NCBI GenBank assembly: GCA_963700315.1
Contig: CAVOXC010000011.1
Coordinates: 288,308-352,307, forward strand
From: an uncultured Acidobacteriota bacterium
Lineage (GTDB): Bacteria > Acidobacteriota > Thermoanaerobaculia > Multivoradales > JAGPDF01
Direction of reading: 5' to 3'
Length of the DNA: 64,000 nucleotides
Below are positions 18,341 through 56,538 of this stretch, piece after piece. Positions within the stretch are counted from its first letter, which is position 1. Each line of letters begins with the position of its first letter. The notes under the pieces are model-generated. The model saw only the letters and a list, made by a program, of their open reading frames with translations. It did not search any database and was not told the DNA's origin. Both the position numbers and the translations under genes were made by a program.

Positions 18341-18517
18341 TCAGACGTCGAGGTTGCGGACGTTGAGGGCGTTGGTTTCGATGAACTCGCGGCGGGGTTG
18401 CACCACGTCGCCCATCAGGATGGTGGTGATGTTGTTGGCTTCGACCTCGTCCTGGACCTTGACCTGGAGCAAGCGGCGCTTGGTGGTCCCTTTTGTGGTC
18501 TCCCAAGACTGCTCGGC
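18341..18517 (-). pseudogene. Orphan duplicate of the gyrB 3' end (last ~58 codons plus stop)
   Basis: A 177-nt direct repeat of 19053-19229, with about 22 mismatches by hand alignment. It encodes ...[47 protein letters not shown] and lies 22 nt upstream of gyrA. Confidence 0.85.
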
Positions 18518-18537
18518 AAGCCTGCAGGCTGGGCGCG

Positions 18538-18822
18538 TCATGGTTCGGCGACCTCGGAGGCGTGGCGGCCGCGGGGGGCGGGGGCGCCGCGGAGGAGGCC
18601 TTCGGTCGAGAGGTCTTCGTCGACCTCCGGCCAGTGGATGCCGTAGCCCGCGCCGGCGAGCTCCCAGCGCGCGCGCTGTTCCGGGGTCGCTTGGAAGAGG
18701 CGCGGATACCAGGAGAGCGGCACGCTGATCGTGCGGCCGTCCATCAGGTCGACGATCAGGGAGTCCGCGTCGAAGCGCACGTTGCGCACCCGTTCGTCAG
18801 CGCTGGTAGCCAAAATACCCAT
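18538..18822 (-). CDS. DUF2442-family small protein
   Basis: [61 protein letters not shown] matches the DUF2442 pattern as I remember it. It overlaps the upstream DUF4160 gene by 26 nt. Confidence 0.7.
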
Positions 18823-19039
18823 GCCAGGCCTCCATCAGTTCCTCTCGCCGGCCCTCGACCAGCCGACCGATCTCGTTGAGCTCGTGCGCCGAGAAGCCGC
18901 GGTTCGCCGCGAGCCCCACCGGCGAGAGCCAGAACTTCGCCGAGAAGCGCTCGCGGTCGACGTGGACGTGCGGCGGCTCCGTTCCCTCGTGGCTGTAGAA
19001 GAAGATCCGGTACGGACCACTCCGCAGAAGCGTCGGCAT
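18797..19039 (-). CDS. DUF4160-family small protein
   Basis: MPTLLRSGPYRIFFYSHEGTEPPHVHVDRE...[24 protein letters not shown] shows the typical N-terminal MP..., the PPHxH core and the C-terminal helix of DUF4160. It starts 13 nt after the gyrB stop. Confidence 0.7.
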   Translation of the reverse strand: MPTLLRSGPYRIFFYSHEGTEPPHVHVDRERFSAKFWLSPVGLAANRGFSAHELNEIGRLVEGRREELMEAWHGYFGYQR

Positions 19040-19052
19040 GTTGGCCCGCCCA

Positions 19053-22822
<3,770 letters not shown>

Positions 22823-23850
22823 TGGCTGTTCTCGTCCTTGAGCTCGAGCAACACGTCGTCGGTCTCGACCGCCGCGAGGAACTGTCCGAGGTAGTCGGGG
22901 TTCAGCCCGATCTTGATCGCCGCGCCGCCGAACTGGCAGGAGATGGTCTCCGAAGCCTCGCCCAGGTCGGGGTTGGCGGCCGCGATCGAGATCTCGCCGT
23001 CGGCGAACTCGAGCTTGACGCCCCGGTTGCGCTCGCCGGTCATCAGCGCCACGCGCTGCACGGCTTCGGCCAGGAGGCGGCGGCCGACCGTCACCTTCTT
23101 GTCGTTGCCGCGCGCGATCACCCGTTCGTAGTCCGGGAACGTGCCATCGAGCAGACGACAGATCATCTCCCGCTCGCCGCAGCGGAACGAGAGGTGGTGC
23201 TCGCCACGGCGCAACTCGACCGTCCCCTCGCCCTCGAAGCGCAGCAGCTCTTGCAGCGCCTTGCGCGGCACCAGGATCGAGTCCTCCGCCGCCGCGGCCG
23301 GCAGCGCGACATCGATCAGCGCCAACCGGTGCCCGTCGGTCGCGACCAGCTCGGCGCGCTCTCCTTTGAGGTGCAGGAGCGCTCCCGACAGCTGGAAGCG
23401 CGACTCCTCCGAGGAGACCGCGAACAGGATCTTGCTCACCAGGCGCCGGCAGGTCGCGAGCGGCAGCGTCAGCCGTGGCTTGCCTTCGACCGTCGGCAGC
23501 GTCGGAAAATCGGCCGACGGCAAGCCATGAATGCGAAAGCGTGAACGCCCAGCCGCCACCTTGAGCGAGCGTTCGTCCTCGAACGCCAGGTCGATCTCCT
23601 CGGCCGAGACGGCGCGGACGATTTCGCCGAACTTCTTGGCCTGCACCGCGAGCGCGCCCTCGCCCGTCACCTCGGCCGGAATCGAGGACGTCAACGACAC
23701 GTCGAGATCGGTCGCCGCGATGTGCAGCCGGCCGCCCTTGGCTTCGAGCAGCAGGTGCGAGAGCACCGGAATCGTCGTGCGGCGCTCGACGATCCCCTGC
23801 ATCGGCGCCAGCTCGGCCAGGAGGTCCTCACGCTTCAGGCGAAGTTCCAT

Positions 23851-24093
23851 CGGCTACTCCGATCGCTTGTCGAGACGGAAAAATAACATAGCAGTAGATA
23901 GTCGTAGATGCCTGCGGACAATTCGGAAAAGCGCCTTCGCGTTCGCTTCGACCGGGTCGCTGGCGTTCCGCAATGTGCGGAAAAGCACTGCGGAGAAGGC
24001 CCGGACGAACTGTGGAAAAGCGGGTCGGGAGAGGTTATCAACAAGTTGTCCACAACCGTTTTAGGCAGGGTTTTCCACACCTCGCGACCCACC
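23851..24093. other. Candidate chromosomal origin (oriC): DnaA-box cluster plus AT-rich patch in the dnaA-dnaN spacer
   Basis: DnaA-box-like 9-mers are TGTGGAAAA (24011-24019), TTATCAACA (24035-24043), TTGTCCACA (24046-24054) and TTTTCCACA (24071-24079), with degenerate ones near 23921-23930 and 23974-23984. The stretch GGAAAAATAACATAGCAGTAGATAGTCGTAGATG (23877-23910) is AT-rich in an otherwise ~70% GC sequence. Confidence 0.6.
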
Positions 24094-25392
24094 TCAAGAG
24101 AGGTGCTTGGTCATGTTCTCGAGCGTGCGCGCGAGCTCGGCGTTGCTGGCGCGCAGCTGCTCGATCTTCTCGACCGAGTACATCACCGTGGAGTGGTGCT
24201 TGTCGTTGAACTGCCGCCCGATCTCGGGATACGACAGCTCGGTGAGCTGCTTGCAGAGAAACATTGCGACCTGCCGCGGAAAGGCGATCTGCTTCGAGTT
24301 CGAGCGCGACTTGATCTCGCCGACCTTCAGTCCATAGTGACGCGCGACGAATTTGATGATCTCGGCCGCGCTGGCGCGCCGGCCGTTCTCGGGCAGGATG
24401 TCGCGCAGCGTTTCCTTGGCGAGATCGAGCGAGAGCGGCTTCGCGGTCAAGGAAGCGAATGCGGCCACACGGTTGAGCATCCCTTCTAGCTCGCGCACGT
24501 TCGACTTGACCTGATTCGCGATGAACAGCGCGACGTCGTCGGGCACACCGACACCGTCGAGGTCGGCCTTGCGCCGAAGGATCGCGATCTTGGTCTCGAG
24601 ATCGGGCGCCTGAATGTCGGCGATGAGCCCCCACTCGAAGCGCGAGCGCAAGCGCTCCTCGATCGACGGGATGTTGCGCGGCGAAGAGTCGGACGAAAGG
24701 ATGATCTGCCGCTGGCTGGTATAGAGCGTGTTGAAGGTGTGGAAGAACTCCTCCTGCGTCCGCTCTTTGTTGGCGAGGAACTGGATGTCGTCGACCAGCA
24801 GCACGTCGATCGAACGGTAGCGGTCGCGAAAGGACGGCATCGACTTGAAGCGCAGCGAGTTGATCAACTGATTGACGAACTGCTCGGCGGTCAGATACTG
24901 CACCTTGAGGCCGCGATGCTTGGCGAGAACCTGGTGGCCGATGGCGTGGAGCAGATGGGTCTTGCCCAGCCCCACCGGCCCATAGAGGAAGAGCGGGTTG
25001 TAGCTGCGCGACGGACTCTCGGCGACAGCGCGCGCGGCGGCGTGGGCGAACTGGTTCGAGCTGCCGACGACAAACGTCTCGAAGGTGTATTTTGGGTTGA
25101 GCCGCTCGAGGGTCCGCGGTTCGGCCGCGATGTCGCGCTCCTCGAGGCCGTCGTCGGCGGTGAGGAAAACCTGCAGGAGCTCGTCGGCGACCGCCGCGGC
25201 TTCGCGATCGATGAGGTGCCGGTAGCTCTCTTCGATGGTGTGGACGAAGCGGGCGTTGGGCGCGACCAGGACGAGCTCCTCGGGGGACTCGCTCTTGACC
25301 GCGAGCGGCGCGATCCAGGCCGAGTACTCCTCCGGCGGCAGCGCGCTGCGCAGCCCCTCGGCGATGCGCGGCCAGATGCGAGCTTCCGTCAC
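24094..25392 (-). CDS. dnaA: Chromosomal replication initiator protein DnaA
   Basis: AAA+ core LFLYGPVGLGKTHLLHAIG and DDIQFLANKERTQEEFFHTFN, and a C-terminal DNA-binding domain ELSYPEIGRQFNDKHHSTVMYSVEKI. GTG start. Confidence 0.97.
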   Translation of the reverse strand: MTEARIWPRIAEGLRSALPPEEYSAWIAPLAVKSESPEELVLVAPNARFVHTIEESYRHLIDREAAAVADELLQVFLTADDGLEERDIAAEPRTLERLNPKYTFETFVVGSSNQFAHAAARAVAESPSRSYNPLFLYGPVGLGKTHLLHAIGHQVLAKHRGLKVQYLTAEQFVNQLINSLRFKSMPSFRDRYRSIDVLLVDDIQFLANKERTQEEFFHTFNTLYTSQRQIILSSDSSPRNIPSIEERLRSRFEWGLIADIQAPDLETKIAILRRKADLDGVGVPDDVALFIANQVKSNVRELEGMLNRVAAFASLTAKPLSLDLAKETLRDILPENGRRASAAEIIKFVARHYGLKVGEIKSRSNSKQIAFPRQVAMFLCKQLTELSYPEIGRQFNDKHHSTVMYSVEKIEQLRASNAELARTLENMTKHLS

Positions 25393-25425
25393 GTCGAGTG
25401 CGACCTCAGAGGGCAGTTCAACAAC

Positions 25426-25446
25426 ATTTCCACAGCTTGTGGAAAT
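25426..25446. promoter_or_regulatory. Perfect inverted pair of DnaA boxes upstream of dnaA (probable autoregulatory operator)
   Basis: ATTTCCACA-GCT-TGTGGAAAT, located 34 nt upstream of the dnaA GTG. Confidence 0.55.
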
Positions 25447-25508
25447 CTCCTGGTGGGCGCCCTAGCGGGAGAACCGCGGGAGCCGGAACTATAGCACGCG
25501 GGTGGGGC

Positions 25509-27230: not shown

Positions 27231-27300
27231 CGTGAGCCTCCGGACCGCAAAGATACCCTGCCCGGCGGGGTGGCGCGGGCGGCGACGGGGAATGAGACCC

Positions 27301-27318
27301 TTGGCACAGGCGTTGCTA
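27301..27318 (+). promoter_or_regulatory. Sigma-54 (-24/-12) promoter-like element
   Basis: T-TGGCAC-AGGCG-TTGC-TA. The GG at 27303-27304 and the GC at 27315-27316 are exactly 12 nt apart, matching the TGGCAC-N5-TTGC consensus. Confidence 0.5.
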
Positions 27319-27327
27319 CTGACAGTT

Positions 27328-27542
27328 GCAGGTAGAACGACTGCGTATGTGGGGAGGTTCCGCACTCCAGAACGTTTCCTACCTGAAGTAGGGGATCCGA
27401 GAGGATCCCAGCCCACTGACAACTCGCCAACCCCCCCTAACTTACAGGGGTAGAGCCACAGATCCCAACCCAAAGAAGGAACCTCCCCCCTACGGATTTT
27501 TCAAGATCGGCCCCGGGCATGTCCCGGGGCCGATCCTTGTTT
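27328..27542 (+). ncRNA. Candidate structured small RNA (~215 nt), family unknown
   Basis: A lower-GC noncoding island between divergent sppA and mutY. An 11-bp closing stem GGGGAGGTTCC (27351-27361) / GGAACCTCCCC (27478-27488) can be extended by CGTA/TACG. Internal hairpins lie at 27378-27392 and 27393-27408. The segment ends in an intrinsic-terminator-like hairpin. Confidence 0.4.
27505..27542 (+). terminator. Intrinsic-terminator-like hairpin
   Basis: GATCGGCCCCGGG-catgt-CCCGGGGCCGATC (13-bp perfect stem) followed by CTTGTTT. On the opposite strand the hairpin is followed by only TTGAAAAA. Confidence 0.55.
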
Positions 27543-27623
27543 GGGGCGCGGTTTGGGGCGGTCGCTCTGGCGCCGCGGGCAGCGCAGCGGCGCCAGAACG
27601 ACCCGATCTAGACTCCCAGCGCG

Positions 27624-29745: not shown

Positions 29746-29778
29746 GCCGGCCGGCGAGCGAGGACAAGGGGGGCCGGC

Positions 29779-32444: not shown

Positions 32445-32461
32445 CGGCTCGCGGCGCCGGG

Positions 32462-33052: not shown

Positions 33053-33062
33053 CGCGGCGGCG

Positions 33063-33356: not shown

Positions 33357-33366
33357 TCGGGCTCCC

Positions 33367-35106: not shown

Positions 35107-35118
35107 CTCTGGAAACGG

Positions 35119-35246: not shown

Positions 35247-35293
35247 TCGCGCTCGGGGCATCGTATCGCGCTCTGGCGCCGTCGTGGACTGTC

Positions 35294-35543
35294 GGGCTCG
35301 CTCCGCTCGTTTTGGTTCGTGCTGATTCGGTTGTTGGGCGTCTCTGGTGGCGGGGCGGTGTGGGTGGGTCCCTTGCCTGCGGAACCGCCGTCCGCCTGGA
35401 GTCTCTTGGAGCGGCCGGCTGCGTTCGGTCTCGCGGCTCGCGCCTGCGGCGCTCGCATCGTTTCGCATGCGAGCCCTCAAGCTTCCTCCGGCAAGGGACC
35501 CACCCACGCCGCGTCTCGTTCCTGCCAGGGACCGACACAAGCC
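35294..35543 (+). repeat. X element, forward copy (~250 bp, contains a long internal stem-loop)
   Basis: About 90% identical by eye to the reverse complement of 56539-56788. The internal arms GTGGGTGGGTCCCTTGCC / GGCAAGGGACCCACCCAC enclose ~115 nt. Confidence 0.8.
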
Positions 35544-35577
35544 ACGAGGACTTGCGAGCTGGCCCTGCAACCCCCCT

Positions 35578-35679
35578 GTCGTCCTGAGCGCAGCGAAGGA
35601 CCTTGCGTGAGCGGCGAGGAACCGCCCTCCTCGCTTCTTCAGGCGAGGGCGCAAGATCCTTCACTTCGTTCAGGATGAC
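35578..35679 (+). repeat. Copy B of the ~100-bp hairpin element
   Basis: GTCGTCCTGAGCGCAGCGAAGGACCTTGCG...CGCAAGATCCTTCACTTCGTTCAGGATGAC with an inner hairpin GCGAGGA/TCCTCGC. Nearly identical to 56338-56439. Confidence 0.85.
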
Positions 35680-35712
35680 ACGCGAAGGCGCTCACGCTGA
35701 CAAGGCACGGTG

Positions 35713-35937
35713 AGCCTGTGTCGCTCCCTGGCACGAACGAGACGCGTGGAGCGGTCCCTTCTCTGCGGAGGAAGCTTCGTAGCCCGCCCCCCAGGCAAGA
35801 CGAAGCGAGCGCCAGCGAGCTTCGCGGGCGGGCGGAGCGCAGGCCCGAGCAGTCCCGCCCAACCGAGGGCCGGTTCCTGCGCAGAGAAGGGAGCGCTCCA
35901 CGCACCGCCACCAGAGACGCCCACCAGAGAATCAGCA
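35713..35937 (-). repeat. X-family element, diverged copy in inverted orientation relative to 35294-35543
   Basis: It shares both termini with the 56.5-kb copy (TGTGTC.C.CCCTGGCA.GAACGAGACGCG ... CCGCCACCAGAG.CGCCCA.CA...GAATCAGC). Its internal stem uses different, mutually complementary arms (GTGGAGCGGTCCCTTCTCTGCG / CGCAGAGAAGGGAGCGCTCCAC). Confidence 0.7.
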
Positions 35938-36049
35938 CGAACCGGGAAATCGCGGAGCGAGTCGCCCACCCGGGGGCCGGTTCCTGCGCAGAGAAGGGAA
36001 CGCTTCTCGCATCGCCACCGGAGACTCCCGGCGGCTGAATTCGCAGGAC

Positions 36050-36604: not shown

Positions 36605-36696
<92 letters not shown>

Positions 36697-36733
36697 AATC
36701 GCAGTCTGAGTTGGTCGCGGGGTGCCGGGCGAC

Positions 36734-36823
<90 letters not shown>

Positions 36824-40312: not shown

Positions 40313-40318
40313 GCGGGA

Positions 40319-40334
40319 CGTTTCACGTGAAACC
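40319..40334. other. parS centromere-like site
   Basis: CGTTTCACGTGAAACC matches 14/16 of the consensus TGTTTCACGTGAAACA, and the 14-bp core is a perfect palindrome. It lies just upstream of parAB and overlaps the proposed rsmG GTG start. Confidence 0.7.
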
Positions 40335-44698: not shown

Positions 44699-44705
44699 GG
44701 CTCGA

Positions 44706-47124: not shown

Positions 47125-47137
47125 AACGACAAGTCCG

Positions 47138-47506
47138 CTAGAAGATGTAGATCGGTCTCTCGACCTGCAGGTCGAAGTCCCAGTTGTAGGTGTAGCCGGG
47201 GAATTCGAGCGGCACGGTGAAGGTGGCGCGCATGCGCAGCCGCCCGCCGCCCTTGGTCGCTTCGACTTTACGCCGGTCGACCGGCAGGTTGAGCTCCGTC
47301 GCCTTGCTGAAGATGCGATTCTCGATCGTCTTGGCGTCGGTGCCTCCCGCCCACTTCGCCTGCTCGACCATGAAGTCGTAGAGCTCGGAGGTCGCGATCT
47401 TGACCGGGATCGCTTTCCAGCCGATCAGAATGCCGATCGCGAGCAGGAGGCCCCAGAGGATGCATCCGAGCTTGCTGTCGCCCGCTTCGCCCCGCCGTCT
47501 CCTCAT
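47138..47506 (-). CDS. Hypothetical single-pass membrane protein
   Basis: The N-terminal anchor is LGCILWGLLLAIGILIGW. Lower-GC codons and a plausible coding pattern. No domain recognised. Confidence 0.5.
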   Translation of the reverse strand: MRRRRGEAGDSKLGCILWGLLLAIGILIGWKAIPVKIATSELYDFMVEQAKWAGGTDAKTIENRIFSKATELNLPVDRRKVEATKGGGRLRMRATFTVPLEFPGYTYNWDFDLQVERPIYIF

Positions 47507-47541
47507 AGCGCCCCCACAATCGGTTCCGATGACGAGAGAGT

Positions 47542-48057
47542 CTAGCGCAACGGCTGCAGCCAGCGCGTGAACCGCGCCCCACCGCCCGGGGCGCGCGACC
47601 AGAGCACCAGCGCGGCGCGGCCGGCGAGAGCACTCCGCTCGACCGGACCGAAGGCGCGCGAGTCGTGCGAGCGTGCGGGCGCGTCGCCGACGAGGGCGAG
47701 AGTGCCGGCGGGCACCCAGGCCTCACCGAAGCGCTCGCCGCCGAGCGCGACGCAGCGCTTGACCAGCAGGCGTCGCCGATCCTCGGGCGAGCGGAAGACG
47801 AAGATGTCGCCGACTGCCGGCGCGCGCACGGGCAGGAGCGCCGCGAGCGGACGGGGCAGGCCGCGCGGGTCGAGCCAGCGGGTCACCAGCACCTGGTCGC
47901 CGGCCAGCAGCGCGGGCGCCATCGAGTCGCTCGAAATCGCAATCAGTCGCAGCGCGAAAGTGCGGATGAAGAGACCGGCGAGAGCGGCGACGAGCGCGAT
48001 CACCAGCGCCCGCCGCGCCGCCGGAATCAGCGCGGCAGATGAAAGGTGCGCGCCCAC
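47542..48057 (-). CDS. Signal peptidase I-like (S26), short divergent paralog
   Basis: SSDSMAPALLAGDQVLV (Ser box), LLVKRCVALGG (Lys box) and GDAPARSHDSRAFGPV. Confidence 0.7.
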   Translation of the reverse strand: MGAHLSSAALIPAARRALVIALVAALAGLFIRTFALRLIAISSDSMAPALLAGDQVLVTRWLDPRGLPRPLAALLPVRAPAVGDIFVFRSPEDRRRLLVKRCVALGGERFGEAWVPAGTLALVGDAPARSHDSRAFGPVERSALAGRAALVLWSRAPGGGARFTRWLQPLR

Positions 48058-48734
48058 CGGGTCTCGGTGGCGAAGCCCACGACCGTATTCAGGATCTCAC
48101 CCGCTTTCTGCCGCAAGCCGCGCCAGGTGCCGTCCGAAGTGCCGCCACCGAACGACCAATAGACGACCGATGCCCGACCCTTGAGATAGCGCGCTGGCAC
48201 CGTGCCCCAAAAGCGCGAATCGTAGGAGAAGTCCCGGTTGTCGCCCATGCAGAAGTACTCCCCTTGCGGCACCGTGAAGGGGCCGAAATTGTCGCGCAGC
48301 CGCCGCTGCTGATCGAGGAAGGGGAGGTTGGGATAGGTCCGCGGGTCTTTGTGCACGACGTAGTCGTCGTCCGAGACCTTCTGGCCGTTGACGTAGAGCT
48401 TCTTGTTGACGATCTGCAACGTGTCGCCGGGCAGACCGATCAACCTCTTGACCAGATCGACGGTCGGCCGCTCGACCGAGCGGAAGACGACGATGTCGCC
48501 GCGCCGCGGCTCGCGCAGCGGCAAGACCGCGCGCTCGAGGCCGCTTTCGGCCGCGCCGAAGATGAAGCGGTTGACGAACAGGTGGTCGCCGACCAGGAGC
48601 GTGTCCTCCATCGATCCGCTCGGGATGAAGAAGGTCTTGATGACGAAAGTATTCGAGAACCCGAGGAAGAGCGCGGCGATCAGCAGCGCTTCGAGGTACT
48701 CGCGGGCGGTGGAACGGGCGGGAGCCTCCGACAT
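48027..48734 (-). CDS. lepB: Signal peptidase I
   Basis: IPSGSMEDTLLVGDHLFVNRF, DLVKRLIGLPGD and GDNRDFSYDSRFWG. Confidence 0.9.
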   Translation of the reverse strand: MSEAPARSTAREYLEALLIAALFLGFSNTFVIKTFFIPSGSMEDTLLVGDHLFVNRFIFGAAESGLERAVLPLREPRRGDIVVFRSVERPTVDLVKRLIGLPGDTLQIVNKKLYVNGQKVSDDDYVVHKDPRTYPNLPFLDQQRRLRDNFGPFTVPQGEYFCMGDNRDFSYDSRFWGTVPARYLKGRASVVYWSFGGGTSDGTWRGLRQKAGEILNTVVGFATETRWARTFHLPR

Positions 48735-49152
48735 GGCCGGCGGAGCTTAACGCACGCGGCGTGCCAGCGTCGGCGCAAAGAATTCTGCGCGCGTCGAGTT
48801 GATTGGACGTCGCAGGGCGCGCCCCTTTCGCCGTCGCCCCGCCACCAGCCGGGCTCGGCCGTCCCCGCGGACGTCCAATGCCTTTGCCCGCCGCGCCGCT
48901 GCGGCAAAGCCCTGCCGACAGCACAAAACCATTGTGTTCAGGCACTTACGCTAACGCTTCGGATTTGGCAGGGGTCTTGATCTCGGTTCGGGCAACAACC
49001 ACCGGAGAGGAGGTGGCGGCGCCCCAGAGAGAAGAGACCGCAGTGCCCCGTCGGAACCGCAGTGAAGAAGTCGCCGGATCGGCCCGCCCCGTGGGCGGGC
49101 CGCCCAAACGCACGGCGGGTCGCCCCGCCATCGAAAGGAAGAGGAGATTGCA

Positions 49153-49494
49153 ATGAAGAGTCACGTCCATCGCAAGACCGCGCTTGCCCTCGCGCTCGCT
49201 TTCGCCTTCGCCGCCCTGCCGGTGGCCGCGGCGGGCGCCCAGAGCGTCAACGTCAACACCGCGACCGTCGAGCAGCTGCAGCTGCTGCCCAACGTCGGCC
49301 CCGCCGTCGCCCAGCGCATCGTCGAGCACCGCGAAGCGAACGGCCAGTTCAAGGCGAGCGAGGACCTGATGCTGGTGCGCGGCATCGGCGAGAAGTCGTT
49401 CGAGAAGCTGCGCCCCTATGTCTCGATCTCGGGGCCGACGACGCTCACCGAGAAGGTGCGCCTGCCCAAGGCCGGCGCGGAGTCGAAGGACTGA
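49153..49494 (+). CDS. comEA: ComEA-like exported helix-hairpin-helix DNA-binding protein
   Basis: Signal peptide ALALALAFAFAALPVAAAGA, then VNVNTATVEQLQLLPNVGPAVAQRIVEHREANGQFKASEDLMLVRGIGEKSFEKL. Confidence 0.8.
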   Translation: MKSHVHRKTALALALAFAFAALPVAAAGAQSVNVNTATVEQLQLLPNVGPAVAQRIVEHREANGQFKASEDLMLVRGIGEKSFEKLRPYVSISGPTTLTEKVRLPKAGAESKD

Positions 49495-49560
49495 GCGGAT
49501 GGGCCGGGGCGGGGGCGTCGAGTCCCCGCCCCGCCCGTCCCTTCGGTCCGGAGAGAGCCC

Positions 49561-50157
49561 ATGACCGCTTCCGAGCGAGGGATCACGCTCGTCGAGCTGT
49601 TGGTCGTCGTCGCGCTCGCCGGGTTGCTGCTGGCGATCGGCTTGCCGCGCTTGTTCGCCGCGGCCGGCGGCGTCACGGTGCGACTCGCCGCCGACGAGGT
49701 GATGATGGCGCTGCGCGAGACACGCATCGTCGGCCTGCGTCTCGGCACGTATGTCGGTGTCAAGTTCCGCACGGCCGCCGACGGCACGGTGACCTACACG
49801 CTCCATCGCGACGGCGATGGCGACGGCATCCGCACCGCCGACATCGAGTCGGGCGTCGACCCGGCGCTCGGATTGCCGCGCCAGCTCCAGCACTTCGGCG
49901 CGACGGTGCGCTTCGGCTTCCCCCCTGGTCCACCGCCGCGCGACCCGGGAGATCCGAGCCGCCGGCTCGATCGCCTCGACGACCCGATCCGTTTCAATCG
50001 TTCGGACATCGCCTCGTTCTCGCCGCTCGAAGGCGCGACGCCGGGCACTGTCTATCTCACCGATGGCGCGCGGCGCCTCGCCGCCGTGCGGGTCACCGGG
50101 CGCACCGGGCGGGTCCGCATCCTCGTCTACGATCCGGACCGGCAGACCTGGCGCTAG
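49561..50157 (+). CDS. Prepilin-type N-terminal methylation-domain protein (GspH/FimT-like minor pseudopilin)
   Basis: ERGITLVELLVVVALAGLLLAIGLP is a class III signal and hydrophobic helix. The size and the C-terminus ...RVTGRTGRVRI resemble GspH/FimT. Confidence 0.7.
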   Translation: MTASERGITLVELLVVVALAGLLLAIGLPRLFAAAGGVTVRLAADEVMMALRETRIVGLRLGTYVGVKFRTAADGTVTYTLHRDGDGDGIRTADIESGVDPALGLPRQLQHFGATVRFGFPPGPPPRDPGDPSRRLDRLDDPIRFNRSDIASFSPLEGATPGTVYLTDGARRLAAVRVTGRTGRVRILVYDPDRQTWR

Positions 50158-50237
50158 CAGCCTGCGGCGTGGGCGCCGCACCGGCCGGCCCGGCAGCCGT
50201 TTGACTCGCGCCGCCCGCCTCCAGTACTTTTCGCGCC

Positions 50238-50609
50238 GTGGGCGGTCTCGTCGTGGTCACCACCGTCGGAAACGAGGAGCAGGCCAACCTGCTCGCCTCG
50301 GAGCTCGTCTCGCGCCGTCATGCCGCCTGCGTCAATATCGTCCCGGGTCTGCGCTCGGTCTACCGCTGGCAGGGCAAGATCTGCCGCGACACCGAGTTCA
50401 TGTTGATCGTCAAGACCAGCGAGCGCGAGTACCCGCTGGTCGAGCAGGCGATCCAAGAGCTGCACAACTACGAGCTCCCCGAGATCCTCGCCTTCAAGGT
50501 CTGCAAGGGGGAGAAGAACTTCCTCGCCTGGATCGAGGGCTCGCTCGACAAGGACGCCCCCTTCTCCGACGAAGAAGAGCGCGACGGCCTCGACGAGACG
50601 AATTACTGA
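50238..50609 (+). CDS. cutA: Divalent-cation tolerance protein CutA
   Basis: VVVTTVGNEEQANLLASELVSRRHAACVNIVPGLRSVYRWQGKI...YELPEILAF. GTG start. Confidence 0.88.
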   Translation: MGGLVVVTTVGNEEQANLLASELVSRRHAACVNIVPGLRSVYRWQGKICRDTEFMLIVKTSEREYPLVEQAIQELHNYELPEILAFKVCKGEKNFLAWIEGSLDKDAPFSDEEERDGLDETNY

Positions 50610-51166
50610 AGCGCCCTGCCCCGTAATCGCAGCCGAAGCCTCGCGAGCGCACGCGTGAGGATCTTCTTGGCGTTGGCGTGCGAGATACCCATCCGGGTCG
50701 CAACCTCGAGCACTGTGCAGCCATCGATGTAGCGCAACCGAAGAGCTAGCGCGGCGGTAGGCGTCAGCAAACGGATCGCTCCTTGGGCGGCGATGCGAGA
50801 AACGATGGGAGTGTCGCGCCCCCGCAGGCGATGGAGCAAAGCGGCATCGAGAGCCAGCTCGCGCCGCCGAGCCACCGCTGCGCGCACTAGCTTCCTGCGC
50901 ACCACGGCGACAAACCAAGCGACCGGGTTCTCGATTCCGGCCTGTCGTTCGATCCAGAGAAGGTAGGTCGACTGGACAGCGTCTTCGAAATCGGGATCGG
51001 AGGCCGAGATCCCGAATCCACGGATCGAGGCGGCGCAGCGGGCGACGACATCGGCGCAGCCGGTCCGGTCGATCGACTCGAGCGCGCACTCGAGCGAGCC
51101 TCCTGCGCGCGGAGAGACCTCGCCGCTCGAGGCCAAGCAGTCGAGCTTCTCGTTCCTCCCCGTCAC
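50603..51166 (-). CDS. ECF-type sigma-70 family RNA polymerase sigma factor
   Basis: The region 2-like segment is DFEDAVQSTYLLWIERQAGIENPVAWFVAVVRRKL and the region 4 HTH is LRLRYIDGCTVLEVATRMGISHANAKKILTRALARLR. The proposed start is GTG 51166, with AGGAGGA about 9 nt upstream. The stop overlaps the cutA stop. Confidence 0.75.
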   Translation of the reverse strand: MTGRNEKLDCLASSGEVSPRAGGSLECALESIDRTGCADVVARCAASIRGFGISASDPDFEDAVQSTYLLWIERQAGIENPVAWFVAVVRRKLVRAAVARRRELALDAALLHRLRGRDTPIVSRIAAQGAIRLLTPTAALALRLRYIDGCTVLEVATRMGISHANAKKILTRALARLRLRLRGRALQ

Positions 51167-51357
51167 GCCGGAGCATCCTCCTGTCCCCGAAAGGTCCGCT
51201 GCCGGCACTATAAGTACGGGTGGCCGGAGTTGTCTATCGAGAGCGTCTTCTCGGTCCGGCCTGGAGAGTCGATCGTCACAGGTTCGCTTCGTCACGCCGG
51301 TGCCTTTCGGGAGCTTGCTGAGAAACTGAAGCAGAGAAACTAGAAAGGAGAGCAAGG

Positions 51358-51552
51358 ATGAGAGTCAAGTTGAGCTGGTCGGGTATCGCTTTGACGTTGC
51401 TCGCGTTGGCGAGTTTGGTCCTCGGGGCGCCGTCGGGTGCGAAGCCACCGAGCTGTGGTTCGTGCCGCGACGGCACGCTGAACATGCAGCAGCAGAGTTG
51501 TCCGGGGTCGGCTTCCGACTGCACGGAGTGCACGGTCTGCGAGCCGGGTTGA
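51358..51552 (+). CDS. Small exported Cys-rich peptide (64 aa precursor, 7 Cys in ~37-aa mature part)
   Basis: AAGGAG lies 7 nt upstream of the ATG. The Sec-type signal is MRVKLSWSGIALTLLALASLVLGAPSGA and the mature part is KPPSCGSCRDGTLNMQQQSCPGSASDCTECTVCEPG. The codons have clearly lower GC than the flanks. Confidence 0.6.
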   Translation: MRVKLSWSGIALTLLALASLVLGAPSGAKPPSCGSCRDGTLNMQQQSCPGSASDCTECTVCEPG

Positions 51553-51593
51553 GGATGACGTAGCGGAGCTCGCGACGGCTACAGGGTATCGGT

Positions 51594-52736
51594 GTGACGA
51601 GCCGAATTCTGCTTGTGATCCTCGCGTGGGGAGCCCATGCGGCGTGGCTGCCCGCCACCTGTGCGGGCTCCCGGCGCGCGGCGGCCGCACCCTGCCGTGG
51701 GGCGAACCTCGACCCGCCACCGGGTTACTTCTTCACGGGCGCCTGGCTGAGCGATGGCGAGGCGCTGGTCCTTCCGGACGTGGCGGATGGAGCGCTCGCG
51801 ATCTACGCGGCCCCGACCGGGGTGCGCACCGAGCGGAGGATCCGGCCCGGCCGGAAGCTCTTCGACTACTCCCGTCCGGGCAGGATCGCTCCGCGTCCGG
51901 GGGGGTACTTGCTGGAGGACGGCAACCTGCGCTTCCTGAAGCTCGACCCGAGACTGGAGCCCGGAGGCCTATTGGATCTCGCGACGACGTTGGAGCGGGG
52001 AGTGGACTGGGAGGCCGCGCCGTTCGCGTGGGCACCGTACCGTGGCGCTCTGGCCGGCTTCGGGGATTTCCGCAGCGCCGGCGGAGAGTGGAAGACGGGG
52101 GTCTTCGTCGTCCGAGATGGACCGCGGCTCGAGCTCGACGTGCTTCTCGAGACGCCCTCGACGCGTGCCCGGATCGTCCCGTACCTGAGCGATACGCCGC
52201 TCCTCGCCTCGGATGGCAAGACCCTCTACTTCCTCGACCTGCTGGATCGGCGAGCCATCCTCCGCTTCGAAGACGGCACGGTCGAAGAGACCTTCCGACT
52301 CGACCCCGCCTTCGCGGATTCCAGCCGCCTGCCCCCCCCGGGGGGAAGAGCCGCGATCGAGCAGATCTACGCGGCGCTCTCGCGCTCGAACCTCGCCGTT
52401 CAGCTCCATGCCGCGGACGGGCTCCTCTTCCTTCTGCTACGCGCGCAGGGATCGCTAGGCGAGCGGCTCTGGTTCCTCGAAGTCGTCGATCCCGCGCTCC
52501 GCCGAAGCCTCGGCCGCCTCAGGCTCCCCACCGACGCGGACCACCTCACGATCGTGCCCGGGCGCAACGCTTGGGCGCTGCTCGAGAAGGGCCCGGTTCG
52601 ACCCGGTCCGCGCTTCGAGTGGGCGCGTCTCCGTCTTGTTCCCGGGAGCCGGATCCAGGGCGCGCTCAGCGAGCTCCGTAGAGGAAAGGGCGGCGAGCTC
52701 GCGCCGTGCGACGCGCAGTCGCTTACTTCGCGCTGA
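51594..52736 (+). CDS. Exported hypothetical protein (~380 aa), beta-rich
   Basis: N-terminal signal-like MTSRILLVILAWGAHAA. Repeated short beta-strand/turn pattern (LVLPDVADGALAIY, YLLEDGNLRFLKLD, LLASDGKTLYFLDL, LLFLLLRAQG). No motif recognised. Confidence 0.55.
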   Translation: MTSRILLVILAWGAHAAWLPATCAGSRRAAAAPCRGANLDPPPGYFFTGAWLSDGEALVLPDVADGALAIYAAPTGVRTERRIRPGRKLFDYSRPGRIAPRPGGYLLEDGNLRFLKLDPRLEPGGLLDLATTLERGVDWEAAPFAWAPYRGALAGFGDFRSAGGEWKTGVFVVRDGPRLELDVLLETPSTRARIVPYLSDTPLLASDGKTLYFLDLLDRRAILRFEDGTVEETFRLDPAFADSSRLPPPGGRAAIEQIYAALSRSNLAVQLHAADGLLFLLLRAQGSLGERLWFLEVVDPALRRSLGRLRLPTDADHLTIVPGRNAWALLEKGPVRPGPRFEWARLRLVPGSRIQGALSELRRGKGGELAPCDAQSLTSR

Positions 52737-53206
52737 CGGTCTCATGGGTCGCCGTAGGCGCCTGTTCCGGGCCCGCGACGCGATCCACGAGAGCCGGTCT
52801 CTTTCCTGACTCGCATTCCGCCGAGCTCGAAGCGAGGCTGACGCTGGACGAAGAGCTCGCGGTCTTCTATTGGCCCGCGGTCGAGCTATGCGATCCCGCG
52901 GCGGTCGCGGCGGCAGTCGCGCTCGAGAAGCTCGCCCGCGAGGAGCAGACCATTCGCGTAACCACCATAGTGCCGAAGGGCACGAGAAATGCGATCGAGC
53001 GCCTCGGCGTCCCCTACCCGGGGGAGACCCTCGAAGTTCCTCCGCGCCAATACCACGCGGCGGGTTGGCTCGTGCCGCTTCCTCGGGTTGAGGTTTGGAG
53101 TCGCGACGGAAGATTGATGCTGCTGAAGGCGATTCCGCCCAACCCGAATCAAGCCACGCAGCTCGGGGAGGAGATCCGATGGTTTCTCGCCATTCCCGTC
53201 ATGTGA
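52706..53206 (+). CDS. Lipoprotein, possibly a degenerate thioredoxin-like fold
   Basis: Lipobox ALTVSWVAVGAC. VFYWPAVELCDP sits where redoxins carry WCxxC, and only one Cys is present. It overlaps the neighbouring genes at both ends. Confidence 0.45.
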   Translation: MRRAVAYFALTVSWVAVGACSGPATRSTRAGLFPDSHSAELEARLTLDEELAVFYWPAVELCDPAAVAAAVALEKLAREEQTIRVTTIVPKGTRNAIERLGVPYPGETLEVPPRQYHAAGWLVPLPRVEVWSRDGRLMLLKAIPPNPNQATQLGEEIRWFLAIPVM

Positions 53207-55962
53207 AGCGAATCCACCGTGCCCTCCTGTGGTTCGCTCTTGGTCTCGCACCTCCGCTGGTCCCGGGAGCCGATGCGCTCGGAGGTCCCGTCTTCGTGGA
53301 CCGTCGTGGCGATCCGGTCGCTGGCGCTCGGATATTCTTGTTCGACCGAGTGGAGGAGAACGCAAGCCTGATGGCACGTTCCGAGGCCTACTTCGAGACT
53401 CGAACCGGATTCGACGGACGCCCCGTCGATCGACTCCCGATCTCGGAGGGCGTCCTCGTCGTGGTGGATGACGGGCGACACGCACCCTGGGAATGGCGCG
53501 AGCGCGAGGATCTGCCGGAACGGGTCGTCTTCCGCGAAGGAGCATCTCTATCGGGTACCTTTCGGCTCGTCGCCGGTCCAGAAGGCTCGATCCCGCTGCT
53601 CGCGGCCTGCGCGAGCTGGGAGAAGTCCTATGAAGAGTGGCGGAGAACGGTCAGGTTCGAGCGCTGTCGTTTCGAACAGGAGAAGAATCGGTTTCGATTG
53701 TCCGGAATACCCGAGACGCCAGTCATGGTCGAGCTGCGCGCACCGCTGGCGTTACCGTGGCGACGCGAAGCGCGAGCCAACGAAGACCTCCAGGCTCTGC
53801 TGGAGCCTGGAATCCTGATTCAAGGCCAAGTCGAGGACGGTCGTGGGGCGCCCATCGCCGGAGCCGAGATACGCGCGGCCAGCGGAGAGGCCGATGGCAC
53901 CGCAATCTCGAATCACAACGGCGCTTTTGCGCTCGCCGTGCGCAGCCTGCCGATAGAGATGGTTGCTCAGGCGGATGGGTATCGCCGCCTGAGCCTGGTT
54001 GCCCAGGCCGAGCGCCTCGACCGCGAGAAGAAGATCCGGATTCGACTCGATCCCGCATTCGTGGTCCGGGGCGAGCTGCGGGCAACGTGCGGCCACTTAC
54101 CCGACCCCATTCGGCTCGACCTGGGCTCGGTCGAGGGGGGTACGAGCCCGAAGTCCCAGGCGCTGTCGCTGACGGCCGAGCAGGGGAAGCTTCGCCTCGA
54201 GGTCGAGCGCCCCGGCCGCTACACGGTCAGAGTCGGCGGAAGAGGGGTTCGCTGGAGCGACCCGATTCCATTCGAGGCGGAAATGCAAGGGGTCTGGGAT
54301 CTCGGACTCATCGAGCTCGGATGTGGTGCCGGGGTTCGCGGCCGCGTCGTCTCGGCCGCATCCGGCGAGGCGTTGCCGCGAGTACGTCTCCTTCTTCGCC
54401 CGAAGGGAACAGGCATCCTGGAGCAGCTGCGATTTCACGAGGCCCATCGGACCTCGACGGGCGCGAGCGGCGAATTCGAGATCCTCGGCGCGCGCTCGGG
54501 AGCGTATGTCCTCAGAGCGGCCGGGCCGGGAGGTCTCCGGCGCGACGAGCCTATCGAGCTGGAGCAGGACGAAGTCGTCGATCTGGGAACGCTCCGCTTG
54601 GCACCCCCGGTCCTCGTCTTGGGGCGGGTCGAGTCCAGGTCCGGGAAACCAAGATCCGGCGTCCTCGTCGAAGCGCTGGATTCTCAAGGGACGCTCCTTG
54701 AGCCCTTGGCCCTTGCGACGAGCACCGACGACGGGAGCTTCGAGTTTCCCTTGTCCGCCGGAAGATACCTCCTGCGAGCGCGAAGAGGGCGAACCCTGGT
54801 GGCCCAGGAGGTCGATGTCCCCGAGGGCGAGGAATCGATCGAGGTCGCCCTGACTACCCGGGAGGTACGCCTGCTCGGAATTGTCCGGTCGGCGGGCGAA
54901 GCGGTACCCGGTGGCTGGGTGGAATGGGTGGATGCCGCCGATCCGGGCCTGCGCCGGGGGAAGCTCGTCCTGCAGTCCGATTCCGCCGCCGCGGGCGGAT
55001 CGTCAATTCACGGTCTGCCGGAATCTCGGACGGGAACCGAAGTTCGGGCGGACGGGACATTCGAGATCGAAGAGGCCGCCGCGGGCCGCGGGTGGCTCGA
55101 CTACGAGAGCCGGGCGGGGAGGAGACACCGACAGCCGGTCGACCTTCTGGACGTGACCGAGACATTCGTCGTCGTGGACCTCGACGCCCCGCCCCTCGAG
55201 GGCCTCGTCGTGGAGGAAAGCTCGGACTCAGGAATCGAGGCGACCGTTGCCCTTCTGTCGGAAAGCGGCGGGCGCGTTGCCGCATCGCCCTCGAGCCCGT
55301 TGTCGGGCTTCTCGTTCGAGAATGTGGAGTCGGGAAAGTATCGAATCGAGGCGCGCGCGGAGGACTATGCAACGGGCTCTTGGCCGATCGAGCTCGCCGA
55401 CGAGAGGTCGCCGCTCCGGCTGGCTCTCGAGAGGGCAGAGAGCGCGTCGATTCGAGTCCGTTTGCGACGAGAGGGAGGGGAGCCCGTCTCCTGGGCGGCG
55501 GTCGCACTGCTGACCGAGTCCGGCGCGGTCGTGCGGTCGCTCCACACCAATCCCGCGGGGGAGATCAAGTTCGTTGAGCTCGCGGCTGGACGCTACCTTG
55601 TGGCGTGGTCGGATGCCCTAGCCGGTGCCGGTGCGTCGGGGCCGTTTGCGGTGACCGCCGGGGAGCCCGCAGAGGCGGACCTTCTCCTGGGGCGAGGAAG
55701 TGACCTCTTCGTCGAGTGTCCGGCCGAAAGTTGTGGAGGCCACCTACTGCAGTGGGCTCAGGTGCTGACGAGCTCCGGAGTGGACATCGGCTTTCTCCTG
55801 AGTGGCCTGGGCTCGGCGCGAAGCGTGTCGTCCAACGGGGCGTTGCGGCTCGGGAGGCTCTCTCCTGGTGCCCCCTACCGGGTGAGGCTCTCTATCGGGG
55901 ACTACCAGGGCGATTTCACGGTGATGCCGGGCGGCGGCGCGATCACGCTTCATCTTCCGTGA
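53179..55962 (+). CDS. Large exported protein built from ~8 carboxypeptidase-regulatory-like (Ig-like beta-sandwich) repeats
   Basis: ATG 53179 after GGGGAGGAG. Signal-like ALLWFALGLAPPLVPGADA. Recurrent G.V.D..G.P..GA.V...........G.F.L..L..G.Y.L repeats (for example IQGQVEDGRGAPIAGAEIRA, VRGRVVSAASGEALPRVRLLL, VLGRVESRSGKPRSGVLVEAL). Confidence 0.7.
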   Translation: MVSRHSRHVKRIHRALLWFALGLAPPLVPGADALGGPVFVDRRGDPVAGARIFLFDRVEENASLMARSEAYFETRTGFDGRPVDRLPISEGVLVVVDDGRHAPWEWREREDLPERVVFREGASLSGTFRLVAGPEGSIPLLAACASWEKSYEEWRRTVRFERCRFEQEKNRFRLSGIPETPVMVELRAPLALPWRREARANEDLQALLEPGILIQGQVEDGRGAPIAGAEIRAASGEADGTAISNHNGAFALAVRSLPIEMVAQADGYRRLSLVAQAERLDREKKIRIRLDPAFVVRGELRATCGHLPDPIRLDLGSVEGGTSPKSQALSLTAEQGKLRLEVERPGRYTVRVGGRGVRWSDPIPFEAEMQGVWDLGLIELGCGAGVRGRVVSAASGEALPRVRLLLRPKGTGILEQLRFHEAHRTSTGASGEFEILGARSGAYVLRAAGPGGLRRDEPIELEQDEVVDLGTLRLAPPVLVLGRVESRSGKPRSGVLVEALDSQGTLLEPLALATSTDDGSFEFPLSAGRYLLRARRGRTLVAQEVDVPEGEESIEVALTTREVRLLGIVRSAGEAVPGGWVEWVDAADPGLRRGKLVLQSDSAAAGGSSIHGLPESRTGTEVRADGTFEIEEAAAGRGWLDYESRAGRRHRQPVDLLDVTETFVVVDLDAPPLEGLVVEESSDSGIEATVALLSESGGRVAASPSSPLSGFSFENVESGKYRIEARAEDYATGSWPIELADERSPLRLALERAESASIRVRLRREGGEPVSWAAVALLTESGAVVRSLHTNPAGEIKFVELAAGRYLVAWSDALAGAGASGPFAVTAGEPAEADLLLGRGSDLFVECPAESCGGHLLQWAQVLTSSGVDIGFLLSGLGSARSVSSNGALRLGRLSPGAPYRVRLSIGDYQGDFTVMPGGGAITLHLP

Positions 55963-56064
55963 CAAGCGGACGTGTTCCAGTTGAACAGAAGCAACGACTA
56001 AAGGTGGCCGAGGCGCTCTCCCATCTCGTGGCACTGGCGCAATGCCGCGCGGAGGCGACTCGAG

Positions 56065-56254
56065 CGAGCCCGAGCGCGAGGCGATCGGGCCGGCGATCCA
56101 CGAGCCGCGCGTCCACGAGCTCCCCGAGATCCTCGCCTTCAAGGTCTGCAAGGGGGAGAAGAACTTCCTCGCCTGGATCGAGGGCTCGCTCGACAAAGAC
56201 GCCCCCTTCTCCGACGAAGAAGAACGCGACGGCCTCGACGAGACGAACTACTAG
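56065..56254 (+). pseudogene. Orphan duplicate of the cutA 3' end
   Basis: 56115-56254 equals 50470-50609 with 5 mismatches (the stop changes from TGA to TAG). More diverged homology continues upstream to about 56065. The N-terminal two thirds of CutA are missing. Confidence 0.85.
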
Positions 56255-56535: not shown

Positions 56536-56538
56536 AGG

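Follow-up and report, generated by a model that had tools for sequence, protein, structure and literature searches.

What process leaves an intact housekeeping gene followed first by unrelated genes and then by a second, orphaned copy of its own 3′ end? This question is raised twice, at gyrB and at cutA, by a 64-kb stretch of DNA (hereafter referred to as the window) from an uncultured Acidobacteriota bacterium of the class Thermoanaerobaculia. The window (approximately 70% G+C) corresponds to the replication-origin region with dnaA, dnaN, recF, gyrB, gyrA, yidC, jag, and parB, and its nearest genome match is contig WYBK01000160 (locus L001) of a metagenome-assembled genome, with 89% amino acid (aa) identity for GyrB and 88% nucleotide (nt) identity for gyrB. 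The DNA that was searched comprised the window and the related loci fetched for comparison; duplications were scored by repeat finding, alignment, and self-BLAST, domains were assigned using Pfam, and 160 related loci were compared with themselves for duplicated ends. We assign a probability of roughly 55% to the interpretation that both orphans are scars of integrase-independent insertion-duplication at hot spots just downstream of highly conserved genes.

Two duplicated gene ends with one architecture

The intact gyrB gene is encoded on the minus strand at 19053–21563 (bounds of the open reading frame [ORF]; the true start is probably located slightly downstream of 21563), with its stop codon at 19053–19055, and lies in the syntenic order dnaN-recF-gyrB-gyrA. 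Its functional 3′ end (copy E, 19052–19229, minus strand), which encodes a peptide ending in NLDV, recurs as an orphan (E′, 18340–18517, minus strand, stop codon at 18341–18343), both copies being delimited by repeat finding and alignments. The 2 copies are 178 nt long, 88% identical, and in direct orientation, with a homology that ends 1–2 nt beyond the stop codon, and their similarity is far beyond chance (self-BLAST E = 8e-59). Between them lies a 534-nt cargo, a DhiTA-type toxin–antitoxin pair consisting of a dhiT-like toxin gene (DUF4160, 80 aa; 18797–19039, minus strand; PF13711, E = 9.5e-21) and a dhiA-like antitoxin gene (DUF2442, 94 aa; 18538–18822, minus strand; PF10387, E = 1.8e-26). 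The ATG of dhiT is located 13 nt past the gyrB stop codon, and dhiA overlaps dhiT by 26 nt. From the dhiA stop codon to the orphan, 20 nt (18518–18537, minus strand) remain unmatched and may represent junction filler; the orphan itself is contained in a 66-aa ORF (18341–18541), the ATG of which overlaps the dhiA stop codon (ATGA). On its other side, a 22-nt spacer (18319–18340), homologous to the spacer of the empty site in L001, separates the orphan from the native downstream neighbor gyrA (15820–18318, minus strand, start at 18318). The succession of orphan, stop codon, spacer, and gyrA is therefore that of the empty-allele junction, as in L001, and the whole can be read as a fusion of 2 alleles, with an occupied one supplying the left part and an empty one, starting 178 nt before the gyrB stop codon, supplying the rest.

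A perfect 12-nt palindrome, AGCCTGCAGGCT, is located at 18519–18530, 2 nt off the junction between the gyrB cargo and the orphan. It may be filler from the formation of the junction or a product of chance, for which we estimate a probability of roughly 1%–3% in a junction region of this size.

Five derived states are common to the intact and the orphan gyrB ends and absent from L001 as well as from the metagenome relative L242. Because these substitutions are specific to the lineage of the window, the 2 ends are sister copies rather than xenologs. Since the duplication, the intact end has acquired 3 further changes, all of them synonymous, and the orphan approximately 20, which are mostly nonsynonymous and in part affect invariant GyrB residues. 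The possibility that the gyrB 3′ end of the window is mosaic or foreign was also considered and rejected, as L001 is the closest match to the window throughout the gene.

At the second locus, intact cutA (123 aa; 50238–50609, plus strand; CutA1, E = 8.4e-35; stop codon at 50607–50609) carries the functional copy E of the duplicated end at 50418–50615 (plus strand; repeat finding and alignments). The orphan E′ is located at 56063–56260 (plus strand) within a 70-aa ORF (56042–56254) that ends with a TAG stop codon at 56252–56254. These copies are 198 nt long, 89% identical, and again in direct orientation, the homology ending 6 nt beyond the stop codon (self-BLAST E = 3e-70, likewise far beyond chance). 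Their divergence is unevenly distributed: the first 58 nt of the orphan are only approximately 70% identical, with 16–18 orphan-specific changes, many of them AT-to-GC, that destroy conserved codons, while the last 141 nt are 96.5% identical and differ by 3 synonymous changes and a change of the stop codon (TGA versus TAG). It is this near-identical part that the first-pass annotation had described as a repeat of about 140 nt with about 96% identity. Relatives differ from both cutA copies by approximately 20%.

The cutA cargo is a 5.4-kb module of sigma-factor and secreted-protein genes. It begins with a gene for a sigma-70 region-4 factor resembling extracytoplasmic function sigma factors (50603–51355, minus strand; Sigma70_r4 and r4_2), which is convergent with cutA, and continues with 3 co-oriented genes on the plus strand spanning 51594–55962: c380 (51594–52736) and c166 (52706–53206), both without Pfam match, and c955 (53095–55962), which encodes 5 CarboxypepD_reg repeats. 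The G+C content at third codon positions is 0.75–0.83 in the cargo genes versus approximately 0.9 in neighboring genes. The stop codon of the sigma-like gene falls within the last cutA codons (50603–50609), where it is the reverse complement of the cutA codons AAT-TAC; since the gene ends there, the insertion must have generated its final few codons at the junction.

Beyond the orphan, the distance to the native neighbor of cutA is filled by additional variable DNA. A copy of an intergenic repeat family resembling repetitive extragenic palindromic (REP) sequences or miniature inverted-repeat transposable elements (MITEs) lies approximately 70 nt downstream (56330–56784), between the orphan and a SnoaL-like gene (56807–57367, minus strand; Pfam). 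Neither the repeat nor the SnoaL-like gene is present in the cutA loci of relatives, and the latter is part of the variable content at this hot spot. The native convergent neighbor, a metC/metB-like gene for a pyridoxal phosphate (PLP) enzyme of Cys/Met metabolism, follows at 57547–~58710 (minus strand, start approximate); its frame and strand were assigned from the codon-position pattern of substitutions, and the same test led us to reject the plus-strand ORFs at 57337 and 58204 as neighboring genes, as they are shadow ORFs. Altogether, cutA and the PLP enzyme gene are 6.9 kb apart in the window, with the cargo, the orphan, the REP/MITE-like repeat, and the SnoaL-like gene between them.

The layout reported for both loci in the first-pass annotation is thus confirmed, and so is its statement that they lack the usual traces of mobile elements. 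Pfam searches revealed no recombinase domain in any cargo ORF of the window, nor in the approximately 48 window ORFs tested; an inverted-repeat scan found no terminal inverted repeats at the cargo borders; and the only tRNAs of the window, 2 tRNA-Ser genes at 36605–36823, are near neither locus. A protein-level search for older orphans, covering the C- and N-terminal ends of approximately 49 window genes, returned only the 2 known ones, and an orphan copy of the end of the metC-like neighbor of cutA was not found in the window either. An exact-protein look-up of the DhiT and CutA sequences of the window matched no record. The gyrB and cutA structures represent independent events that share one architecture, as had been proposed.

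Empty and occupied alleles in related genomes

The gyrB-gyrA spacer is found in different states among relatives. In all fetched Acidobacteriota genome loci comprising both genes, gyrA follows gyrB directly and dhiTA is absent (in L001, the spacer measures 25 nt), which indicates that the insert is lineage-restricted. Occupied alleles without a second gyrB end were identified in the metagenome relatives L242 and L243, which share the order gyrB-dhiT-dhiA-gyrA with 31 nt between the dhiA stop codon and the gyrA start codon, and in L250 (1–5261), where a 3.2-kb spacer accommodates a protein kinase gene, dhiTA, a second DUF2442 gene, and an Mrr nuclease gene. The occurrence of empty, occupied, and multiply occupied alleles within the clade identifies this spacer as an insertion hot spot. 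With respect to its content, L250 marks it as a hot spot for defense-type genes.

Nucleotide identities between the window and L242 amount to 85% for dhiT, 81% for dhiA, 76%–82% for gyrB, and 83%–88% for gyrA. Since the cargo is as diverged between these lineages as its flanks, and the duplicated copies are 88%–93% identical, the gyrB duplications post-date the arrival of the cargo. The 5 derived states shared by the 2 gyrB ends further place the duplication within the lineage of the window itself, at a time after its divergence from L001 and long after the clade had acquired the cassette.

The cassette itself is ORF-sized, promoterless, and widespread. Homology with the dhiTA cassettes of relatives starts at the start codon and stops exactly at the dhiA stop codon, and the DUF2442 protein has more than 100 homologs with 75%–90% aa identity across very different phyla. 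Furthermore, dhiTA is also found after nrdB, thiC, and the gene for methylmalonyl-CoA mutase, co-oriented with these genes and without flanking repeats. In the individual loci, the pair begins 3–27 nt beyond the end of a highly conserved gene, as counted from its stop codon (L244:3784–4267, L245:3784–4261, L251:2784–3261, and L242:3446–3947). This habit is shared by DinD (Bro-N) genes, which exhibit 75%–81% aa identity across proteobacteria (L259:3501–4358, L264:3501–4397, and L270:905–1756) and were observed 2 nt past the cbiG stop codon in a cobalamin operon, 19 nt past a methylase gene in a restriction/defense operon, and after gyrB. Taken together, the dhiTA and dinD cassettes found elsewhere are separated by 2–27 nt from the stop codon of the conserved gene that precedes them, share its orientation, and lack repeats. 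Therefore, an orphan gene end is an occasional by-product and not the usual route of insertion.

For cutA, a conserved gene order consisting of a helix-hairpin-helix protein gene, a pilin-like gene, cutA, and the convergent gene for the PLP enzyme was identified in approximately 45 related metagenome loci. The site 3′ of cutA is variable, being occupied by another gene in L081 and by inserts in L101, L096/097, L109, and L133. The gene found directly after cutA in L081 (2711–3235), the closest cutA relative, is a homolog of the M20 peptidase gene of the window (12524–13050), which lies 37 kb away in the opposite orientation; the corresponding rearrangement breakpoint in L081 is located approximately 36 nt after the cutA stop codon. 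Most relatives of the cutA locus also retain 2 tandem, overlapping paralogs of an S26 signal peptidase, which are encoded at 47542–48746 in the window. As for the cargo module, a 97% identical version is present in L248, a contig of a sister strain that is interrupted precisely at the cutA repeat, and a distant homolog of the module occurs in L249.

The same architecture in other genomes

Self-comparison of the 160 related loci revealed 2 further cases, L044 and L120, which supports the earlier suggestion that the architecture is recurrent. The first stems from an isolate, the gammaproteobacterium Porticoccus sp. W117 (L044), in which gyrB is followed by a single Bro-N/DinD gene and a copy of the gyrB end measuring 171 nt at 93% identity (approximately 186 nt at 90% by local alignment). 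The stop codon forms the exact end of this orphan, and an ankyrin-repeat gene starts 9 nt farther on. In L270, gyrB is likewise followed by dinD (81% aa identity), without an orphan, and W117 and L270 share 78% nt identity in gyrB and 77% in dinD. Compared to the 90%–93% identity of the 2 gene ends in W117, these values indicate that the W117 cargo is an old resident and that the duplication is younger. The second case, in the metagenome locus L120, concerns the pilin-like gene upstream of cutA. Downstream of this gene lie genes for a TetR-like regulator and a small membrane protein (a cargo identified from ORF translations only), then a 106-nt copy of its own end (78% identical), and then cutA; the copy reaches approximately 40 nt past the stop codon and ends just before cutA.

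Repeat lengths at the 4 loci are approximately 106, 178, 186, and 198 nt, and the end points of the repeats vary as well, lying 1–2, 6, and approximately 40 nt past the stop codon at different loci. The 2 gyrB orphans, although from different phyla, both begin within approximately 20 nt of the conserved QLWETTMD motif and of each other, although an exact shared core could not be defined. None of the 160 related loci contained a duplicated intermediate free of cargo.

Three of the orphans are located in ORFs that are open in the original frame and have acquired start codons (18341–18541, 56042–56254, and L044:7831–7983), and could hence be translated as peptides of 50–70 aa with the C-terminus of GyrB or CutA. 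A direct repeat of comparable size was observed in the viral contig L187, where 2 copies (5392–5562 and 6646–6814; 171 nt, 94% identity) are 1.25 kb apart; this might represent a similar insertion-duplication in a phage genome.

A proposed route of insertion

The following sequence of events would produce the observed structures. In a population, a conserved gene X would exist as an empty allele, adjoining its native neighbor, and as an occupied allele, followed by cargo. DNA carrying the 3′ end of X together with the cargo would enter the empty allele of a close relative and undergo homologous exchange inside X, and the other junction would be illegitimate, joining the distal end of the cargo to a point 100–200 nt before the stop codon of X. 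This could be achieved by a single (Campbell-type) crossover of a circularized fragment or by homology-facilitated illegitimate recombination (HFIR), and the entry of an empty-allele fragment into an occupied allele would be equivalent. The product would consist of intact X, the cargo, the displaced 3′ end of X, and the native neighbor, with the orphan subsequently decaying as a pseudogene. That the distal junction is illegitimate is inferred, as are the transfer route and whether the DNA arrived as a circle or in linear form. Because X and its neighbor are essential or useful, only products with a complete X and without a deletion would survive, so that unrelated events would come to look alike; at gyrB, products with a truncated gyrB, a partly deleted gyrA, or a missing gene end would be inviable or would not be retained.

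The anatomy of the loci agrees with such insertion-duplication in several respects. The direct duplications are approximately 106–198 nt long, neither terminal inverted repeats nor short target-site duplications are present, and the homologous segments stem from close relatives, as is evident from the 5 shared derived states at gyrB and from the 141 nt with 96.5% identity at cutA. Of the 2 mechanisms put forward in the first-pass annotation, recombination anchored on a conserved gene end is the better fit.

HFIR was reportedly described by de Vries and Wackernagel in 2002 and by Prudhomme et al. in 2002. During conjugation in Escherichia coli, a non-replicating circle with a single homologous segment yields mostly single-crossover integrants with duplications of 109–950 bp, a size range that the repeats described here match, and true HFIR is far rarer than these integrants (PMC3240628). 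HFIR has likewise been invoked to account for Rhs and type VI secretion system (T6SS) genes whose 3′ ends are displaced (PMC5361080).

Uneven decay and other points to be weighed

Several observations weigh against this interpretation. One concerns the decay of the orphans, in 3 of 4 of which the substitutions are strongly skewed toward the junction side. Counted from the 5′ junction in bins of 30 nt, the gyrB orphan of the window contains 7, 3, 3, 7, 0, and 1 mismatches, the cutA orphan 10, 6, 0, 0, 1, 1, and 3 (of 18), the Porticoccus orphan 9, 2, 2, 2, 0, and 3, and the L120 orphan 6, 8, 5, and 3 (of 16). Expressed differently, the gyrB orphan has accumulated approximately 20 changes in its first 120 nt and 0–1 in its last 60 nt, and the cutA orphan 16 within 60 nt of its start and 2 across the 120 nt that follow. 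A single event followed by uniform decay does not predict such a skew. Furthermore, the cutA cargo was not found without an orphan in any relative, and the greater age of the cargo compared to the duplication is thus established for the 2 gyrB cases only. Neither a conspecific empty allele nor a circular form was observed. The shared QLWETTMD start of the 2 gyrB orphans is more of a coincidence than random junctions predict (approximately 1 in 25 by informal reckoning). Finally, 2 scars within 38 kb exceed the rate of approximately 1 per 80 loci in relatives, although this rate is biased by the choice of loci.

The skew is not accounted for by constraints on the conserved parts. Since species differ as much in the last 70 nt of gyrB as upstream, regulatory constraint on this part was rejected, and so was a structured RNA in the conserved orphan parts (z-scores of −0.5 to +1.4) as well as a terminator, as only weak minus-strand stems were found, which are present in both cutA copies. 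As the preferred explanation, we suggest that homologous recombination with functional alleles circulating in the population has repeatedly renewed the stop-proximal part of the orphans since their formation. Such an exchange would extend from a left crossover inside the orphan into the native flank and would therefore never refresh the junction-proximal part, while renewal with sequence under selection would explain why differences in the stop-proximal part are synonymous only. To our knowledge, this polarity has not been described for insertion-duplication or HFIR events. The earlier reading of 88% versus 96% identity as a sign of different ages is unsound, given that each of the 2 orphans is more uneven in divergence along its own length than the 2 are when compared with each other.

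Alternative explanations

An alternative that would account for the polarity, and that we regard as unlikely, is that units of gene end and cargo, free of any recombinase, excise as circles by homologous recombination and re-enter empty alleles by a single crossover. The replacement end would keep the essential gene intact, and the coding, stop-proximal arm, which would serve as a functional gene end or be swapped with one, would be refreshed with each integration, while the never-coding junction arm would decay throughout the life of the unit; cargos would be small selfish ones (DhiTA pairs, DinD) as well as larger modules, all using the homologous recombination of their hosts in related genomes. 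Cycling of this kind predicts that the junction-proximal part is old and decayed, and that the stop-proximal part is young and differs mostly at synonymous sites, and indeed 3 of 3 coding differences at cutA are synonymous, alongside the stop-to-stop change, and synonymous and nonsynonymous differences in Porticoccus number 5 and 2, respectively. The shared QLWETTMD start of gyrB orphans in 2 phyla would be explained as well, and the empty L001 between occupied lineages fits repeated loss and regain. Moreover, the cargo is of a selfish type, unusually conserved across phyla (75%–90% aa identity for DhiTA and DinD), and always located within 2–27 nt of the stop codon that ends a conserved gene, a position that it also takes in other genomes. 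However, ordinary population recombination would give the same polarity, which is lacking in the L120 orphan, and neither a circle nor a conspecific empty allele nor a second genome with the same cargo–orphan junction was seen. In addition, dhiTA and dinD are devoid of flanking repeats in every other context examined, which argues that repeats are not their usual route.

Improbable, too, is a decayed or trans-mobilized site-specific element of the e14 or phage 21–icd type. A tyrosine or serine recombinase, since lost or encoded elsewhere, would have integrated it together with a replacement 3′ end into a conserved site of gyrB or cutA, and later deletions would have removed most of it and spared the cargo flanked by attL and attR. 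In architecture, the loci match icd-e14-icdC (PMC13626634), a toxin–antitoxin pair is the type of gene expected to outlast the decay of an element, and Bro-N/DinD genes are common in prophages; the main point in favor is that the gyrB orphans start near the same ultra-conserved motif in 2 phyla. Against this stands the absence of an integrase from the 4 cargos and the approximately 48 window ORFs tested. Nor was an integrase family among the 25 listed of the 71 families assigned to 68 ORFs just downstream of gyrB or cutA in relatives, where single matches could be hidden, the listed families including every family matched by 2 or more ORFs. A GyrB C-terminal profile detected no isolated gyrB-end fragment, and hence none next to an integrase, among the 80 best viral contigs; tblastn against a phage collection returned only jumbo-phage gyrases and bacterial contamination; and a second gyrB 3′ end was found in 0 of 5,424 E. 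coli genomes at megablast sensitivity, the extra matches of a more distant search mode including parE.

The data from relatives point in the same direction and likewise do not support the dedicated, trans-acting integrase with a foreign replacement end that the first-pass annotation had offered as its other option. The same cargo occupies the same site without a second gyrB end in L242, L243, and L250 (dhiTA) and in L270 (dinD), dhiTA follows nrdB, thiC, and the methylmalonyl-CoA mutase gene without repeats, and both the lengths and the end points of the repeats vary, which does not fit an integrase that targets gene ends. The 534-nt gyrB cargo, reaching from start codon to stop codon, leaves no room for arm sites. 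Nor is a foreign origin of the replacement end supported, as both gyrB ends share the 5 window-lineage substitutions and the cargo is as diverged as its flanks.

Purely local events, namely a tandem duplication of the gene end with or without the cargo, followed by insertion or deletion and without any exchange between alleles, are very unlikely. Such events would account for intact and orphan copies that are more closely related to each other than to any other sequence, point in the same direction, and lie near one another, but they would have to involve 2 or 3 precise steps at each of 4 loci. In its simple form, which the earlier annotation had named as part of the finding that would overturn its proposal, local tandem duplication is excluded, since duplicating the gene end together with the cassette would place a second cassette after the orphan, where the empty-allele junction is found instead, and since no cargo-free tandem duplicate occurs in the 160 related loci. 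Hardly credible, finally, is an assembly artifact in which strain variants of one locus were stitched together in series: the window appears to stem from a metagenomic contig and the sister-strain contig L248 breaks exactly at the cutA repeat, but a real repeat itself causes such a break, the orphans carry pseudogene-type damage at invariant residues, unlike allelic variants of essential genes, and the same architecture is present in the isolate genome of Porticoccus sp. W117.

Integrase-free insertion-duplication, our preferred interpretation, bears on a general problem. Most chromosomal gene gain takes place at hot spots without recognizable mobile-element machinery, and the route of DNA entry is largely inferred. 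Orphan gene ends would constitute physical scars of this process, in which one junction is homologous and the other is not, and in which occupied and empty alleles have recombined. If they are common, these scars could be counted and would provide a measure of integrase-free insertion in gene flow, including the spread of toxin–antitoxin and defense genes into operons that, like gyrB-gyrA, are essential. Flanked by direct repeats, the cargo would also be excisable by RecA, which bears on the stability of such insertions. Moreover, decay polarity, if it results from population recombination, would offer a new internal clock that distinguishes the age of an insertion from the time of the last exchange.

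Additional features of the window

Besides the copy downstream of the cutA orphan, the REP/MITE-like family is represented at 4125–4462 and 35297–35961, with 80%–95% identity among the 3 copies. The copy at 35297–35961 forms an imperfect palindrome of approximately 665 nt between the gene for the signal recognition particle (SRP) RNA and the 2 tRNA-Ser genes. A repeat shared by 35577–35703 and 56337–56464 had been considered as a third orphan, derived from a gene 5′ end, and was rejected, as it belongs to this intergenic family beside the SRP RNA gene. A 273-aa ORF without Pfam match (4414–5235) contains an internal direct repeat of 435 nt (approximately 70% identical, 4486–5139), which suggests a two-domain repeat protein.

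Comparison with known systems

Neither a transposase nor terminal inverted repeats nor a short target-site duplication, as expected for transposons and insertion sequences, is associated with the 2 loci. Diversity-generating retroelements are likewise not indicated, as Pfam revealed no reverse transcriptase domain in the cargo and the differences between the copies are not adenine-specific.

The DUF4160/DUF2442 pair corresponds to DhiTA, a type II toxin–antitoxin system that was validated in Dickeya dadantii (PMC8198452). The gyrB cargo shares the 2 domains, the toxin-first order, and the overlapping frames. It differs in that the window pair is matched by domain only, toxicity having been shown for the Dickeya pair (PMC8198452), and in that the 13 nt after the gyrB stop codon leave no room for a promoter of its own, placing the pair inside the gyrB-gyrA unit.

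C-terminal displacement at rhs, cdiA, and T6SS loci was reportedly described by Jackson et al. in 2009. There, a new 3′ end enters together with cargo via the conserved upstream part of the gene (PMC5361080), and displaces the old 3′ end, which persists downstream as an orphan, with HFIR proposed as the mechanism (PMC5361080, Kirchberger et al. 2017). Those systems involve variable toxin ends with paired immunity genes, the diversity itself being under selection, whereas the genes affected here are gyrB and cutA, the displaced ends of which are homologous to the new ones and the cargo of which has no relation to them.

The e14/icd case reportedly goes back to Hill et al. in 1989. It resembles our loci in its succession of intact housekeeping gene, insert, and displaced C-terminal fragment (icdC) in direct orientation (PMC13626634), in direct repeats that derive from the end of the target gene while the upstream copy stays intact, and in incoming DNA that supplies the replacement 3′ end, with recombination between the copies restoring a chimeric gene. 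In contrast to e14, which possesses its own integrase and excisionase as well as a defined att core, no integrase is present here, and the cargo of 0.5–5.4 kb is not always bounded by 2 att copies but is repeat-free in some relatives, and the copies are sister sequences of one lineage. Hence, the layout works like icd-e14-icdC and like Rhs displacement, yet it belongs to neither family, because there is no integrase, the cargo is not always bounded by repeats, and the genes are not polymorphic toxins.

The closest resemblance is to insertion-duplication and HFIR, in which an insert is likewise placed between direct duplications of 100–950 bp of the homologous locus, without a recombinase, terminal inverted repeats, or a short target-site duplication, with one homologous and one non-homologous junction, as proposed here, and with an upstream copy that stays intact if the stop codon is part of the fragment. 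Known examples are laboratory constructs, whereas those described here are natural, are located at housekeeping genes, and carry cargo of toxin–antitoxin or operon size, and the exchange seems to have taken place between occupied and empty alleles of close relatives. What is new, compared to these systems, is therefore the natural occurrence of what are probably integrase-free insertion-duplication scars at the ends of housekeeping genes.

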